Virus record (IMG/VR): IMGVR_UViG_3300025096_000124
Location: 1 to 24,733 of that record
Length of the DNA stretch: 24,733 nucleotides
Strand: one strand, 5' to 3'
Origin: a virus
Lineage: Duplodnaviria; Caudoviricetes
Shown here: in pieces, positions 6,927 to 23,706 of the stretch
How the letters are laid out: each line of letters starts with the position of its first letter
Numbering within the stretch: position 1 is the first letter of the stretch
Notes under the pieces: generated by a model
Told to the model about the DNA's origin: nothing
The model's input: the letters and a program-made list of their open reading frames with translations, nothing else
Databases searched by the model: none
Made by a program: the position numbers and the translations under genes

Positions 6927-6990
6927 TTAAAGATTCGGTTGTTTTTAAGTCTGTCTATTAGTGGAAACTAAAAATCGGTTGAATCTTTAA
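6927..6990. repeat. Structured hairpin motif, copy 1 (copy 2 at 22304-22375)
   Basis: TTAAAGATTC-GGTTG-TTTTTAAGT...ACTAAAAAT-CGGTT-GAATCTTTAA; core shared with copy 2. Confidence 0.75.
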
Positions 6991-10221: not shown

Positions 10222-10294
10222 TCTTACTTTCCCGTTATTTTATATAAATATGTTTTAAAATTATGTTTTACCATTATTTTCATAACCTTTTTTG

Positions 10295-10731
10295 TGGAGC
10301 GGGGGAGATTCGAACTCCCGTCCTGTCTGTCTTTAATATAAAGTCATTCACAACTTATTTGATTTCTAATCGGTTAAAATCAACAAAACACCATTGAGTT
10401 CGTTTCTCAACTACGACAACATATCTCTGTGTTGCTCAGGGTTGGATTTCAAATAGGTAGTAATCCAACGAAACCACCGTTTGTCTAACTTATTTTATGC
10501 TCGGGTGTTAGACAACCCAAGAACTTATGCGTAAGCGTAAGTTGGTTGAGAATCCATCACGGGTTCAACGAAAACGTCAAACATCCGTTCTGTATTGGCT
10601 AAATGCCAATCAATTTCCAACCCTTGTAGCGATTTATCGCCATTTTGGGTTTGTGAGTCTTTTTTCACGAGTCTACTCAAACTCTGTTGCACTCTATTAT
10701 CAAATAACACCAGTCGAAACCTGTCCGCCCC
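10295..10731 (-). ncRNA. ssrA: tmRNA (437 nt)
   Basis: 5' GGGGCGGACAGGTTTCGAC; 3' GACGGGAGTTCGAATCTCCCCCGCTCCA (T-arm, acceptor stem with G3:U alanine determinant); PK1-like GAGT/ACTC plus TGAGT/ACTCA; internal reading frame ending YAYA-TAA at 10525. Confidence 0.95.
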
Positions 10732-11142: not shown

Positions 11143-12531
11143 TTAAGTATCTAGTAAGTGTGGTTTTCCTTCAATATTTCCCGCACTTGTCACCTCTATT
11201 AATTCTACTTTAGAATGATACTCAGAAATATTGTTAGCACCAACATAGCTGAAAGCACTACAAAGTCCCTCTTGTATATCTCTAAGGATTCTTTTGACTT
11301 TCCCTTTATAGGGAATGACTTTGTGATTTCCTTCGACATTTTTATTATCACCTCTTGATTTTTTAGAGTCCAATGATGCGGAACCTCTATATTTTTTATA
11401 TAACTGTTCATTAGGCCATTTGCCTACTTTTTCAATTTCTCCTGGACTTTCTTTTGTACCAGATAAAAGGGAACCCAACATAATCGTATCAGCCCCACAA
11501 CCAAGTCCTTTACACACATCCCCAATATCGCGAACACCACCATCAGCAATAACGGGAGTGCTAAAATCATCAGCAACGGCGACGCAATCACGGATAGCAG
11601 ACACTTGAGGGATTCCGACACCCGTTCTAATTCTCGTTTCACATAACGATCCATTTCCAATTCCGACTCTAATCGAGTCCGCTCCTTTTTCACATAAGTA
11701 TTCAGTCGCTTCTGCTGTTGCAACTGATCCCGCAATGACTTCAACTCCTGATAACTTGGTTTTGATTTCTTCAATGGCTTCTCCTACATATTTATGATGT
11801 CCATGCGCTACATCTATAAGTAACACATTACACCCATTTTTGACTAATTCTTCAGCCCTTTCTAAATAATCTCCTTTAACACCTATTGCGGCACATATTG
11901 GTAATTTACTTATATTTTCTTGTAAACTTTTCATACTTTTATAAAAGTCTTTTATAAGTTTTAATTTCTGTTTACTTACCTTTATAGAATTAAGATCTAT
12001 CTGTCGTTTATGTACGTCAAAGTAATCAAGATCTACATCATGTCCAAACTTTAGTTTAAATATTTTCCTATAATAAGACCTGGTAGCACTTAGATGTAAT
12101 GTAATTGGATGATTATCTAATGTTTCATCCAATAAAAATTTCCATTCTTTTAATGTATACTCCTCAAGTGGTTTAGTTTTGGAACCAATTATTGTGCCTG
12201 CATAAGCAAACATAGAATCTACTTCATTCTCTAAAGTTACATTTTCTGATATAAACTGACCCCATAATTTTTTATTTAAATTTAACTTTTTTACTATATC
12301 AGATTGTTCTTTAATGCTCATAAAACGATGTATAACTCCAACACCACCCAAACTCATCATTTCCAAAGCCATATCATATTCAGTTACAGTATCCATTGGT
12401 GAAGATACTATAGGTATTTTAATATTTAAAGTCTTTGTTAACTTAGTATTTAAATTAACTCTTTTACGAGAAACCAACTCTGAATATTTAGGAACAATAT
12501 TTACATCATCATATGCTAATAATTTACTCAT
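11143..12531 (-). CDS. IMPDH/GMP reductase family enzyme, probably GMP reductase, with a non-CBS insertion
   Basis: 'SSPMDTVTE', 'GVIHRF', 'DVAHGH', catalytic loop 'GIGNGSLCETR', 'IADGG', 'YRGSAS', 'NVEG'. Confidence 0.9.
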   Translation of the reverse strand: MSKLLAYDDVNIVPKYSELVSRKRVNLNTKLTKTLNIKIPIVSSPMDTVTEYDMALEMMSLGGVGVIHRFMSIKEQSDIVKKLNLNKKLWGQFISENVTLENEVDSMFAYAGTIIGSKTKPLEEYTLKEWKFLLDETLDNHPITLHLSATRSYYRKIFKLKFGHDVDLDYFDVHKRQIDLNSIKVSKQKLKLIKDFYKSMKSLQENISKLPICAAIGVKGDYLERAEELVKNGCNVLLIDVAHGHHKYVGEAIEEIKTKLSGVEVIAGSVATAEATEYLCEKGADSIRVGIGNGSLCETRIRTGVGIPQVSAIRDCVAVADDFSTPVIADGGVRDIGDVCKGLGCGADTIMLGSLLSGTKESPGEIEKVGKWPNEQLYKKYRGSASLDSKKSRGDNKNVEGNHKVIPYKGKVKRILRDIQEGLCSAFSYVGANNISEYHSKVELIEVTSAGNIEGKPHLLDT

Positions 12532-16470: not shown

Positions 16471-16491
16471 GCTTTTTCTTTAGTTTTTTTG

Positions 16492-16571
16492 TGAGTGCGG
16501 TAGGATTCGAACCTACTTGATGGTTAAAACGGGTTACAGCCGTTCTCCTTGCCAAATCGGACTACGCACTC
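16492..16571 (-). tRNA. tRNA-Tyr (GUA), CCA not encoded
   Basis: Acceptor GAGTGCG/CGCACTC-A; anticodon arm AACGG-CTGTAAC-CCGTT; T arm GTAGG-TTCGAAT-CCTAC; 11-nt variable region. Confidence 0.88.
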
Positions 16572-17175: not shown

Positions 17176-19998
17176 TTAGAAATTTAGGGATAACCCTAGA
17201 TTAAAGTATCTTGGTGTACCAAGAAATACTTCAGCATTATGAGCTGCGTGAGTTTTATCTCCATAGCTATTGTACTGACTATGATCTACTGCATCTTGAA
17301 CAAATATTGCATCAGTTGCATTAAACACGTGACCAAATAAAGTTACATCATATCCACTAATTGGTAGTTTATATGAAGCATGTAAATCCACTTTGGAATA
17401 TCCAGGTGCTTTCCATACTTGTTCTCTATCTGCATCTGCGTCTGAACCATCATACTCTCTTGCGCCAGGACTCCAATCAGAATAATTATCATCATACTGA
17501 TTGTATATTGCCTGTAACTGTAATCCCTTTATGGGAGTAAGTGTTCCAACAAGTGCGTAAGATGTCTGAGGCATATCACCTACATTCAAACCATCCAATG
17601 CATAAGAATAAGGTGTAGTTGTCTGTCCGATGACTTGACCTTCATCATTGAACTCATCTTCTTGATAATTACCATCAGCATCACCGTCAAACTGCCATTT
17701 ACCAAGACTTACTATAGCATCCAACCTAAGCATATCTAGGATTTGTGTGGAAGCTTCAACTTCAACGCCTTTATGGTTCTGATTAATTCCACTTAGGAAT
17801 ATAACATCAGTATCACCACTTGAGCCTTGTCCACTTGTTACAGACTTGGTAAGATTTCTGTCTTTCCAATCTGTATTGTAAGCAGATACTTTAACTGCGT
17901 AGTTACCAGCAGAATAGTTTACACCAGCTTCTGAACTAATGAATCTTTCATTAGCAGGATCTGAAGCAACAGTTCCATCAAAGTAAATCACATTATCCAT
18001 AATGGGTGGTTTTTCAACTATACCAAAATTACCGAAAACACTAACGTCATCAGTAACATCATACATTGCTCCACCTTTCCATTGTATAGTAGAGATAGGA
18101 TCAGCTGTGATCTTTTCATCTGCTACTGTAAAATGGTCTTGGTATGAATATGCAATTTGAGTTAATCCTAACATACCATAAGCGTTTAATGGTCCTGAAT
18201 TATATGCTCCTTGAACATATCCACCTAACCAATCAACTGTAGTTGAGTTATGATAAGCGATTATATCACCTAACTCAACTCTTTTACCATCTGGTGCGTT
18301 ATCATCAGCATAATCCATATAATAATCACCACCAAGTAAATCACGAACTTCACGTGCGTGTTCAATACCAGCAGTTCTCCAATCAATACCAACTTGTAAT
18401 TGAAGTTCATCACTTAAATCATAATTAAGTTTAGAAATCAAACCAAGTGTATTTTGACGATTAATACTATTCCTCAAAATACCTACTGATTGATTATTAT
18501 CAACACCATGTGTACGTGTGATTACTCTTTTGTCTACATAGACAGTATCAGAATCACCGCTATTCATAGCTACTAGTGCATTCCAATCGCGGGTCCACGG
18601 ACTACGACCATAATAGAACTTATAGTTCTCTCCACCTAATGTACCATCAGCGTCTAAGGTAGGAATCCTACCATAAGTACCTGTACCACCACCAGAACCA
18701 CCACTCCAATACAATACTGAACTCAGTCTTGTTTTGTCATTGATAGTCATAAAATGATTCAAGTTAACCAATGGTTTGTGAAAAAAGTTTTCACGTTCAT
18801 TAAGGAAGTTAGGATCGTGTCTGTCTACCGTTTTTGCACCATACATATAATAGTATTGTTTACCAGTATATGATGGATCAATTGGTGACCAGTTCTGATT
18901 AAAAAACCTACCAACATCTTTGAACTTACCATCTTCACCAAGTGCTTCAGTATCATATCCATCTACACTTGCAGCAAATTCGGCATCGTATGCACCAAGA
19001 TTCTGTTTGTATAGATTATGTCCATGACGTTGTGGTGCACCTATTGCATATAATTCGAATCTGTTATCTTTATTTGCCTGATAACTAGCTCCAAAATAAT
19101 ATGCCCAAGCGTCCGTCCAAGTCTTGTCTATGACACCATCACCTGTTTTTCGTACTATTGTACCACTTAATGCAAGTTTATCATCCATCATCAAACCACT
19201 ATTATAATTTATAGTAGACTTCATGAATCCTCCTGCACCAGCTTCTTGTTTGAACTTACCACCCTTTTCATGGGAAGTAGGATCAGTTATAATATTCATA
19301 GTTCCACCAATGGAAGGGGCAGCTAAATTTACAGCACTAAGACCACGTTGCATCTGGATAGATTGAGCAGCATCTGCCACACCATCCCAGTTAGACCAAT
19401 AGACCCAACCGTTTTCCATATCATTTTGTGGAACTCCGTTAATCATTACTGCTACATTCCGTTGATTAAAACCTCGAACATTGATACGGGCATCCCCCGC
19501 ACCACCACCTTGTTGTGTTGCATATACACTTGGTGTAGTATTAAGTGACATTGGTACATCTTGTGAACCAAGACGAAATTCCAATACTTCTTTTCCTACC
19601 GTTGTATAAGCAACAGGTGTCTTTGCATCTGCGCGGGAAGCCAAAACTTCCAACGCTGACATCTCGACTGCTGAAACTGCTAGGCTAAAGTCGAGTGTTA
19701 CATCACCACTAACATCAACAGATTTAGTGGATGATTCGTAACCAATAACTTGAGCCGTAATTGTATAAGAACCGTCACCAACCTCAATGGAATAAGTACC
19801 ATCTTCTAAAGAAGCTGTACCTAAATCTGTTCCTACTACTATTACATTAGCTCCAGCTAATGGATCCCCTGACTCATCAGAAACAACTCCACCAATGCTT
19901 GTGCTTACCTTTTCTTCAATTACTGCTTCTTGTCCGAAAAGGAACATAGGCATCAGAATCGTCATTACCGATGAGATTAGATTACGTTTGTTTTTCAT
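17176..19998 (-). CDS. TonB-dependent outer-membrane receptor with N-terminal carboxypeptidase-regulatory-like domain
   Basis: Signal peptide; 'G.V.D.SGDPLAGANV.V.GT..GT....DG.Y'; plug 'INVRGF...VMINGVPQND'; beta-barrel ending in terminal Phe (YFNLGLSLNF); GAGGAG SD. Confidence 0.93.
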   Translation of the reverse strand: MKNKRNLISSVMTILMPMFLFGQEAVIEEKVSTSIGGVVSDESGDPLAGANVIVVGTDLGTASLEDGTYSIEVGDGSYTITAQVIGYESSTKSVDVSGDVTLDFSLAVSAVEMSALEVLASRADAKTPVAYTTVGKEVLEFRLGSQDVPMSLNTTPSVYATQQGGGAGDARINVRGFNQRNVAVMINGVPQNDMENGWVYWSNWDGVADAAQSIQMQRGLSAVNLAAPSIGGTMNIITDPTSHEKGGKFKQEAGAGGFMKSTINYNSGLMMDDKLALSGTIVRKTGDGVIDKTWTDAWAYYFGASYQANKDNRFELYAIGAPQRHGHNLYKQNLGAYDAEFAASVDGYDTEALGEDGKFKDVGRFFNQNWSPIDPSYTGKQYYYMYGAKTVDRHDPNFLNERENFFHKPLVNLNHFMTINDKTRLSSVLYWSGGSGGGTGTYGRIPTLDADGTLGGENYKFYYGRSPWTRDWNALVAMNSGDSDTVYVDKRVITRTHGVDNNQSVGILRNSINRQNTLGLISKLNYDLSDELQLQVGIDWRTAGIEHAREVRDLLGGDYYMDYADDNAPDGKRVELGDIIAYHNSTTVDWLGGYVQGAYNSGPLNAYGMLGLTQIAYSYQDHFTVADEKITADPISTIQWKGGAMYDVTDDVSVFGNFGIVEKPPIMDNVIYFDGTVASDPANERFISSEAGVNYSAGNYAVKVSAYNTDWKDRNLTKSVTSGQGSSGDTDVIFLSGINQNHKGVEVEASTQILDMLRLDAIVSLGKWQFDGDADGNYQEDEFNDEGQVIGQTTTPYSYALDGLNVGDMPQTSYALVGTLTPIKGLQLQAIYNQYDDNYSDWSPGAREYDGSDADADREQVWKAPGYSKVDLHASYKLPISGYDVTLFGHVFNATDAIFVQDAVDHSQYNSYGDKTHAAHNAEVFLGTPRYFNLGLSLNF

Positions 19999-20140: not shown

Positions 20141-20227
20141 GTTAACATCATTTATAATTCATACAGTAGGCTTTCCCTACCGTATATAAGTATAAACTAA
20201 AAATTTTAAATACATCATTTTTTAACG

Positions 20228-22295: not shown

Positions 22296-22303
22296 AATAA
22301 TTT

Positions 22304-22375
22304 ATAAAAAGGGCTCGGTTGATTTTTAAGTTGTTTATAAAGTGAGAACTAAAAATTCGGTAGAGCCCTTTTTAT
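22304..22375. repeat. Structured hairpin motif, copy 2 (may also act as the hsp20 terminator)
   Basis: ATAAAAAGGGCTC-GGTTG-ATTTTTAAGT...ACTAAAAATT-CGGTA-GAGCCCTTTTTAT. Confidence 0.75.
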
Positions 22376-22392
22376 TTATACTGTAACCTCTA

Positions 22393-22866
22393 TTATGAGA
22401 TCTTTACAAAGGTTTTCTTAGGTTTTTCTGGTTCTACCTTTGGAATTGAAACTGAAAGAACTCCATCCTTAAAGTTAGCAGCGATTTTCTCACCATCTAA
22501 CAATTCGCCCAATTCAAATGAGCGTTTAAAAGATGATTGTTTTAACTCTCTACGGATAACCTTAGCACCATCATCTTCGAAAGTACTATGTTTATCACCT
22601 GATATAGTTAATATACCATCTTCAACATCTACGTTGAGTTGTTTCTTATTCAGTCCTGGAATTTCAGCTACGATACCAATTTTGTCATCGTATTCATATA
22701 CGTTTACCTTTGGATATGCTGAACCTTGATATGGTTTGACACCAACTGATTTAACTACATCTGGAAATTGTGATTCCACCATAGCATCAAACATTTTGTC
22801 AAACGGGGTTAAAAAATCATCCCTATCGAAGTAAGGGATATTTGTACGAAAAGCAACTTTAGTCAT
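22393..22866 (-). CDS. Small heat-shock protein (Hsp20/alpha-crystallin family)
   Basis: 'YPKVNVYE', 'AEIPG', 'GILTISG', 'SFKRSF.L', 'A.FKDGVL.V.IPK'; AGGAG SD. Confidence 0.95.
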   Translation of the reverse strand: MTKVAFRTNIPYFDRDDFLTPFDKMFDAMVESQFPDVVKSVGVKPYQGSAYPKVNVYEYDDKIGIVAEIPGLNKKQLNVDVEDGILTISGDKHSTFEDDGAKVIRRELKQSSFKRSFELGELLDGEKIAANFKDGVLSVSIPKVEPEKPKKTFVKIS

Positions 22867-23038
22867 TTTATTTCTCCTATTTTAGTTACTGTTAGTCAAC
22901 TATGAATACCAACTTCTTTTGAACCTTGATATTCGGTTTATGTATCGACCTCATAATGAGCGTCGAATTCTTTTTTTTCAGACAATCAAATCCGTCAAAA
23001 ATATTTCTAGTAATAAATATATACCTCTTAATAAAAAA

Positions 23039-23453
23039 TGAAAATTTTGGGGGTGTGGAACAGCCATTCCACATTGAATCACTCTGATTTATTACTTCAT
23101 ATCTCGTTTCCAAGTAGTTACCTCGGTTCTCCTCAATGCTATTAACATCACTTGAGCGGATACAATTCCTAATCCGATTGCTTTAACCCTCAAAGAAAGG
23201 TTTATTCAGCCAGTTTACAGGGAGATTTCCTTTCGGGTACTCCCAATGAAGCGAAAAAGTAGGCTTCTTTTTCAAGTAGTTTTGACTCAAACTCCCGCCC
23301 AAGATGTCTCTCAGTATTACCAGTATTTAGGTGAATACTCCTCTACCACAAGAGGGTTTGGGATACTTTACAAGCCCTTAACGTAACCTGTTATTCGGTC
23401 AACCCCACAGAAAGGTGTACGACCCGTCTGCTTTACTCATTTTCAAATTTTCA
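23039..23453 (-). ncRNA. Candidate large structured non-coding RNA (~415 nt), family unassigned
   Basis: GC-elevated gap without a credible ORF; complementary ends; about ten hairpins; GNRA tetraloops and a loop-E-like motif on the minus strand. Confidence 0.7.
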
Positions 23454-23526
23454 AAAAACTTTATCAACCTATTTTTATAGGCTGATAATATAAGTATGTT
23501 CTAAAATCTCAAAACACACTTTTTTT

Positions 23527-23706
23527 TTAACTTTTTGCAGTTATTAAATTTTCAACTGGCACATACCAAATTTTACCCATATCATCAGTAACTCGGTAAT
23601 CACCATTTTCTCTTCTTATAACTTTAACTGTATCACCCTCATACAATGTACCAGCATGTGTTGTCAAAGTTTTTTTTAATTTTGCTTTTTTATTATCTTT
23701 TACCAC
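23527..23706 (-). CDS. Small SH3-like beta-barrel protein (59 aa); not in the ORF track
   Basis: GTG start; ...GTLYEGDTVKVIREENGDYRVTDDMGKIWYVPVENL... has an SH3-like strand pattern. Confidence 0.65.
   Translation of the reverse strand: MVKDNKKAKLKKTLTTHAGTLYEGDTVKVIRRENGDYRVTDDMGKIWYVPVENLITAKS

Follow-up and report, generated by a model that had tools for sequence, protein, structure and literature searches.

A putative tandem manA RNA with exchanged P8 strands in marine phages and a proposed even-membered assembly

The manA RNA (Rfam RF01745) was proposed in 2010 as a possible riboswitch located upstream of mannose, nucleotide, ibpA, and photosynthesis genes (PMC2864571, accessible part of the text), and has been unexplained since. 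RNA-only cages have been demonstrated in vitro only recently. According to the accessible part of a preprint (10.64898/2026.07.01.735769), manA RNAs of less than 200 nt form pentamer-based 8-, 10-, and 60-mers, with manA_A0F1 forming the 60-mer and manA_pho34 and others forming decamers, through the intermolecular contacts L5-L7', L8-L9', L3-L8', and L6-P6'. These cages have been seen only in vitro, at about 3 mg/mL. The same preprint describes the dimer of EGFOA_Pae_6186, in which helices arise from strand exchange between two units. GOLLD and ROOL, which are large phage ncRNAs of unknown function with covarying kissing loops, range from 659 to more than 800 nt and adopt another fold, and a scaffold or container role in infection has been proposed for them but not shown (PMC12286853, accessible part of the text).

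The window analysed here, which is the whole 24,733-nt stretch of IMG/VR record IMGVR_UViG_3300025096_000124, is a fragment of a large tailed phage and encodes baseplate wedge genes, tmRNA, tRNA-Tyr, IMPDH, peptide deformylase, a TonB-dependent receptor, and hsp20. In agreement with an earlier sequence-only reading, the ORF listing placed the largest gap without a credible gene at 22867-23526, and the gap region was richer in GC (0.41) than its flanks (0.30 and 0.27); equally GC-rich 415-nt windows account for 3%. The strings quoted in that reading, as far as they were checked, lie on the minus strand where it had placed them, and its central claim, a real conserved phage ncRNA of about 415 nt, is borne out by relatives and covariation. 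The features of the locus are collected in Table 1.

Table 1. Coordinates of the double RNA, its parts, and the neighbouring elements in the window
Feature	Position	Strand	Remarks
Promoter-like element	23490..23531	-	A-tract, TTTTG box, and TA-rich box including TACTTATA; putative function
Leader hairpin	23461..23488	-	Variable or absent in relatives
U-run/GAAAA leader motif, boxA-like	23448..23459	-	Nearly invariant; kept where the hairpin is missing
Whole RNA	23039..23453	-	Includes A/U-rich terminal stalk (23453-23444 with 23049-23039)
Folded core of RNA	23431-23050	-	
manA copy a	23220..23431	-	P1, P2 5' strand, P3a, P4a-P7a, P8a strands, L8 hairpin, P9a
Closing helix P2, single	23402..23406 with 23054-23050	-	Paired throughout (100%) in the 22 and 24 sequences; compensatory changes
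P3a, first signature internal loop (YGAAYAA / UAAR)	23365..23401	-	
P4a junction	23293..23363	-	Hairpins P5a (L5a 23350-23345), P6a, P7a (L7a 23308-23305)
Swapped helix X	23283..23290 with 23081-23074	-	P8a 5' strand and P8b 3' strand
L8 hairpin	23253..23273	-	Loop 23265-23262 kisses L9b 23065-23062
Swapped helix Y	23246..23251 with 23100-23095	-	P8a 3' strand and P8b 5' strand
P9 of copy a, extended	23220..23244	-	GAAA cap in subtypes A and C; aligns to manA P9
manA copy b	23050..23212	-	P3b, P4b-P7b, P8b strands, P9b, P2 3' strand
P3b, second signature loop	23180..23212	-	Loop 23195-23190 pairs with 23087-23082
P4b junction	23101..23178	-	P5b (L5b 23166-23161), P6b, P7b (L7b 23121-23116)
P9 of copy b	23055..23072	-	
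hsp20 gene	22393..22866	-	Pfam HSP20
Terminator-like hairpin, conserved	22301..22373	-	Directly 3' of the RNA in most relatives; after hsp20 here

In an Rfam scan, the 3' half of the RNA (23244-23048) aligned over the full length of the manA model (34.4 bits, E 1.3e-5), and the 5' half, scanned alone, matched manA positions 23-182 (18.1 bits, E 0.009). Both scores are below the Rfam gathering threshold for manA of 55.2 bits, which was exceeded by the 3' halves of 5 of the 12 relatives scanned; the 3' half reached 65-73 bits in five of the six subtype-B relatives scanned, and the 5' half of the relative L171 matched the whole manA model with 36.8 bits (E 2.5e-8). The manA signature loop YGAAYAA/UAAR, flanked by a 2-bp stem and P3, is present in two nearly invariant copies with covarying stems, and the P4 junction with P5-P7 and complementary L5 and L7 also occurs twice, the complementarity crossing from one copy to the other. 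Where manA is defined by one core of about 190 nt with its own P2 and P8, here P2 is common to both copies and the P8 strands are swapped. By sequence comparison, the RNA is a tandem duplication of manA consisting of two fused copies, and the new class envisaged in the sequence-only reading gives way, as both halves match manA. The Rfam scan of the window RNA yielded no GOLLD, ROOL, OLE, RNase P, or intron match at E<=1, consistent with that reading as to RNase P and group I/II introns and inconsistent with its suggestion of a compact GOLLD/ROOL relative, and no covariance-model match to GOLLD, ROOL, or OLE was obtained at E<=0.1 in 12 relatives.

The double RNA resembles manA RF01745 in the signature internal loop, the P3-P9 order, the L5/L7 loop types, the complementarity between the L8 hairpin and L9, the marine phage hosts, and the frequent ibpA/hsp20 neighbour, and differs from it in being twice as long, with two cores under one P2, exchanged P8 strands, L5/L7 specificities crossed between copies, and the framing of its own transcription unit. 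Its likeness to GOLLD and ROOL lies in its being a large phage ncRNA with covarying kissing loops and in the position of one subtype within tRNA arrays, although it is only about 400 nt long. At least five rows of the 2010 manA alignment (PMC2864571, accessible part) correspond to subtype-B 3' halves that lack the 5' half and show a gap where P2 would be, so part of that alignment consists of half-molecules. A literature search, with most subscription journals outside its scope, found no paper on tandem manA, and the accessible parts of PMC7657543, PMC9964418, and PMC7779021 contain nothing on the double form.

Relatives were gathered by pattern scans and protein-anchored fetches, giving at least 726 sequences including the window, and at least 186 of these (at least 95 distinct) contained a near full-length profile match. 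The family thus comprises at least 95 distinct full-length relatives on viral and metagenome contigs, among which more distant members may be missed. Window-like subtype A is 70-95% identical to the window RNA, subtype B about 53%, and subtype C, represented by two sequences within tRNA arrays, about 49%. Most loci were fetched with patterns requiring both copies. In the protein-anchored sets with at least 900 nt upstream, which are free of this bias, the RNA was present in 26 of 62 SSB loci and 5 of 69 hsp20 loci, full length in every case, in agreement with the pattern-scan sets. All nine partial matches at E<0.001 sit at contig ends, and there was no lone half among the matches listed. A blastn search of 50,697 GenBank phages with the window RNA and subtype-B and -C relatives gave only short chance matches, and cultured phages thus offer no known carrier here. 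The tandem pattern matched 111 times in 185,579 prokaryote genomes, none with a family profile match, and a wider copy spacing (186-216 nt) gave 11 viral matches, none of them real.

Pairs were counted on MAFFT alignments, which were not fitted to the structure, of 22 subtype-A and 24 subtype-B representatives, with subtype C and near-duplicates left out. In subtype A, the 110 model pairs were paired in 94.3% of 2390 cells, and 44 pairs showed two-sided change; in subtype B, the 96 model pairs were paired in 98.6% of 2282 cells, and 59 showed two-sided change. The slid controls were paired in 37-49% of cells, though the structure model was drawn from the same sequences and is therefore favoured over these controls. 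Against a tree-based substitution null, 30 pairs were significant in subtype B (E<=0.05), comprising 24 model pairs, four non-canonical pairs, and two canonical pairs that lengthen P6b and the L8-L9 kiss. Subtype A, which has little power alone, yielded one significant pair, and the joint 38-sequence alignment yielded eight, six of them canonical model pairs. Judged by covariation, P2 encloses both copies. A loop-versus-loop scan found no partner for L3a, L6a, or L6b consistent across subtypes, L6b being able to pair with L5a in subtype B only. The locus almost certainly encodes a real RNA, and this RNA is very probably a double manA with swapped P8.

Seen against this model, about half of the helices proposed from the single sequence were wrong. 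The CCUCU/AGAGG helix and the 3' hairpin at 23073-23054 are supported by relatives, as is the pairing of the GGGAG...CUCCC hairpin, which had been called a loop-E/GNRA element and aligns to manA P9, thus marking the end of copy a. The long-range pairing of 23290-23283 with 23081-23074 holds as a pairing, not as the loop-loop pseudoknot that had been considered possible but as the nested helix X. In AACCUUUC/GAGGGUU, the first 4 bp stand, whereas the remainder forms a pseudoknot, and the terminal pairing, for which 5-10 bp are possible in 38 of 38 relatives, is without covariation (z 1.1). CCCAA/UUGGG and GAAGC/GCUUC were paired in only 59% and 66%, respectively, and the strands of GGUCG/UGACC (84%), CGGAU/AUCCG (83%), and CUUG/CGAG (85%) are required elsewhere by the covarying model; together, these five inner helices were paired in 76% of cells, compared with 75.7% when shuffled.

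The P8 strands are exchanged between the copies. Helix X was paired in 97% and 96% of cells in subtypes A and B, with means of 7.5 and 7.9 bp compared with 3.7 and 3.0 bp within a copy, respectively. Helix Y was paired in 99% and 96%, was significant against the tree-based null, and had means of 6.5 bp (A) and 6.8 bp (B) compared with 3.0-3.7 bp within a copy. On this covariation, the two cores are connected by X and Y in a common P8 junction, which makes core b a circularly permuted manA attached to core a. The strand exchange is reminiscent of that in the EGFOA_Pae_6186 dimer, which belongs to an unrelated family and exchanges strands between separate molecules (10.64898/2026.07.01.735769, accessible part), whereas in the double manA the exchange is fixed covalently by duplication. 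Further contacts cross the copies. The pseudoknot of L3b includes the top covarying pair of the joint alignment and has 6 bp in 36 of 38 sequences and 4 bp in the other two, and the kiss between the L8 loop and L9b scored z 7.6 for cognate versus permuted partners and was paired in 95.5% and 93.5% (A and B). Subtype C keeps X, Y, and both pseudoknots, by inspection. L7a and L5b form 3 bp in 46 of 46 sequences (22 of 22 in A, 24 of 24 in B), with a compensatory change from C-G to U-A in L571 and L573, two related sequences in which it may be a single event, and in all 24 subtype-B sequences one of the three positions is left unpaired when L5 and L7 are taken from the same copy. L5a-L7b fits in 24 of 24 subtype-B sequences, without covariation; only two of its pairs are invariant, and the third is C-U in 8 of the 22 subtype-A sequences and, in the further B-like loci L676 and L718, A-C. 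Photobacterium manA monomers of the 2010 alignment (accessible part) have the L5/L7 pair whose two loops are here divided between copies b and a. Covariation is blind to whether a pair is intra- or intermolecular, and any cross-copy contact could thus form within one chain.

Considering these results, we propose the following scenario, to which, taken as a whole, we give roughly even chances: a strand-swapped double manA, made as its own transcript, would assemble by itself into an even-membered RNA-only ring or cage. By position, the L8 hairpin would be assigned to core b and the strand beside X to core a. L5b-L7a, L8-L9b, and L3b-L8 would then be links from core b to core a already in place inside a single chain, probably the same contacts as those that join neighbouring molecules in the manA pentamer cages, and the next molecule would be recruited through the weaker L5a-L7b contact. 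The building block would be a pre-linked two-subunit unit for even-membered RNA assembly. Because the cores must alternate a-b-a-b, a five-membered ring could not close; rings of four or six cores (two or three molecules) would be expected, and the loop specificities predict against pentamers, which makes for a sharp structural prediction. In infection, the assembly may provide the phage with an abundant structural scaffold or container, which is the least certain step and is borrowed from the hypotheses on GOLLD and ROOL. The double RNA and the published cages share complementarity for L5-L7, L8-L9, and L3-L8, the helix numbering of the preprint being tentatively mapped onto that of Rfam, but the cages have one core, either L8-L9 or L3-L8, and pentamers, whereas the double RNA has both contact types and alternating cores (10.64898/2026.07.01.735769); the accessible part of that preprint does not mention a double manA. 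The loops appear to have diverged after duplication into crossed a/b pairs and yet stayed complementary, suggesting that cage-type contacts are under selection, and the double form would thus provide evolutionary evidence for selection on the contacts between neighbours. A more specific version, which we regard as speculative and rather doubtful, is that the RNA is a natural covalently linked, strand-swapped heterodimer, in which duplication has turned the subunit of a five-fold homomeric cage into alternating a and b subunits, whose six-membered rings would give rise to sheets, tubes, or larger quasi-equivalent shells within infected marine bacteria. Such an a/b heterodimer would be the RNA counterpart of gene-fused pseudo-hexameric shell proteins.

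The main rival keeps the double fold but supposes that duplication replaced oligomerisation, so that all cross-copy kisses close in one chain and yield a compact pseudo-symmetric monomer to which a protein of the host or phage binds as to a decoy or platform, which we consider possible although on balance not probable. L5a-L7b, the sole contact then left for a neighbour, is the weakest of all, with a mismatch in 8 of the 22 subtype-A sequences, and the near-invariance of the signature loops in both copies could reflect a binding partner. However, L5-L7 of the published manA is intermolecular and forms rings of five (10.64898/2026.07.01.735769, accessible part), both L5-L7 contacts between two cores would probably need very different geometry, and no neighbouring protein gene is constant.

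The RNA is probably transcribed as a unit of its own. A promoter-like matrix built from 43 relatives, with the window excluded, scored 31.8 bits at 23531-23490, and its next-best site in the window, upstream of the TonB-receptor gene (20186-20227), scored 11.3 bits. The motif TACTTATA, which the sequence-only reading had picked out, is alone at chance level (5 found, 3.0 expected), yet is the end of this conserved element. The upstream hairpin and U-run were considered as a terminator and rejected because the U-run persists without the hairpin. The U-run motif resembles but does not match the gammaproteobacterial boxA consensus (PMC5725501, accessible part), and a role in stable-RNA transcription is thus a lead only. 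The terminator-like hairpin starts no more than 150 nt past the RNA 3' end in 65 of 89 distinct loci, its profile having been seeded from 21 of these 89, and 19 of 40 loci have another promoter-like element past the RNA, compared with 0 of 37 coding controls. The window has neither element between the RNA and hsp20, which lies between the RNA and the terminator-like hairpin and is thus probably co-transcribed here. The independent transcription claimed from the sequence alone therefore probably holds in that the relatives' promoter-like and terminator-like elements frame a unit, but not to the exclusion of hsp20 in this phage. Contigs from at least six marine RNA libraries of six studies map to the RNA (the analysis covered 7 of the 24 listed runs), and one 334-nt RNA-library contig spans both copies (23064-23397, two differences). 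As the contigs are strandless and a probable DNA run has the same three contig peaks as the RNA runs, they suggest transcription without demonstrating it, and summed contig depth was not read as expression level. The lack of RNA-contig coverage upstream of 23466 and the adapter-ended single contigs at 23048, 23417, and 23422 were not taken to mark transcript ends.

A tandem-aptamer cis-regulator, that is, a riboswitch-like leader of the downstream gene, is unlikely. It would accord with the Rfam label 'Cis-reg', the 2010 riboswitch candidacy of manA, and the position of manA upstream of ibpA chaperone and nucleotide-synthesis genes (PMC2864571, accessible part), as well as with a next gene that shares the strand of the RNA in all 44 loci that have one (10 of 54 loci have no downstream ORF in reach) and the location of the window hsp20 before the terminator-like hairpin. 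However, the next gene varies, being a gp32-like SSB gene in 33, hsp20 in 7, and another gene in 4 of the 44 loci, and only 5 of 69 hsp20 and 26 of 62 SSB loci have the RNA. Moreover, the next gene often comes with a promoter-like element of its own, and antiterminator complementarity was no higher for cognate than for non-cognate pairs (7.8 vs 8.2, n=32). With the relatives' own promoter-like element, terminator-like hairpin, and varying next gene, an hsp20 leader is thus unlikely, the placement upstream of hsp20 named in the sequence-only reading is incidental, and the 'cis-regulatory' label is argued against for the double-manA branch.

It is very unlikely that two tandem manA monomers fold separately or are cut apart, the swapped state being one conformer. 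P8 retains a within-copy complementarity of 3-4 bp, and the covariation model lies 12 kcal/mol above the minimum-energy fold, with pseudoknots uncounted, but copy a lacks the P2 3' strand and copy b the P2 5' strand, X and Y covary across copies, and the partial matches, 9 of 9, are at contig ends. Finally, the absence of any functional RNA, the signal being a chance fold, a small ORF, or a DNA element, is largely refuted by covariation. A single sequence folds no better than chance (z -1.2 and -1.1 compared with shuffles), so that the structural evidence is comparative, and a 73-codon ORF overlaps the 3' end, but compensatory changes tolerant of G-U occur throughout and few gap runs have a length divisible by three (17 of 297 and 36 of 391).

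Several further observations concern the relatives. The terminator-like hairpins belong to a family of about 70 nt (22301-22373 on the minus strand and 6930-6988 in the window) with variable outer stems and a conserved apical part, which also occurs downstream of hsp20 genes at loci that lack the RNA (13 of 80 such loci) and between convergent genes, has no Rfam match, and may be a protein-binding terminator. L299:234-675 is an apparent recombinant, with a 5' copy almost identical to the window and a 3' copy like L209/L149, in which the cross-copy pairs are kept through G-U wobble. In a branch of subtype B (L171, L180, L164, L231, and L282), the promoter-like element and the U-run motif are separated by an additional structured leader of about 70 nt, and pilin-like genes, one with a PHROG pilin match, lie beside the RNA locus of the subtype-B phage L151 (4903-6020). 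The subtype-C RNAs, L128:2796-3237 and L130:2782-3220, are at the end of long tRNA arrays and have a different promoter-like element, repeated directly after the RNA, which we take to be reminiscent of Bacteroidota promoters.

Elsewhere in the window, a phage tmRNA at 10292-10731 (minus strand; Rfam 74.8 bits) was missed by ARAGORN, and a cold-shock protein gene ends 7 nt upstream of it. The single tRNA-Tyr (16491-16571, minus strand) is directly 3' of a polynucleotide-kinase phosphatase-domain gene. IMPDH and SSB searches returned metagenome proteins, the nearest isolates for SSB being Microcystis phage Mel-JY01 (50%) and Flavobacterium phage immuto (43%). The IMPDH/GMP-reductase (11143-12531, minus strand) has 462 aa, about 65 aa more than most close homologues (about 397 aa), and many RNA-library contigs map to the gene of the phage-encoded TonB-dependent receptor of 940 aa (17176-19998, minus strand).
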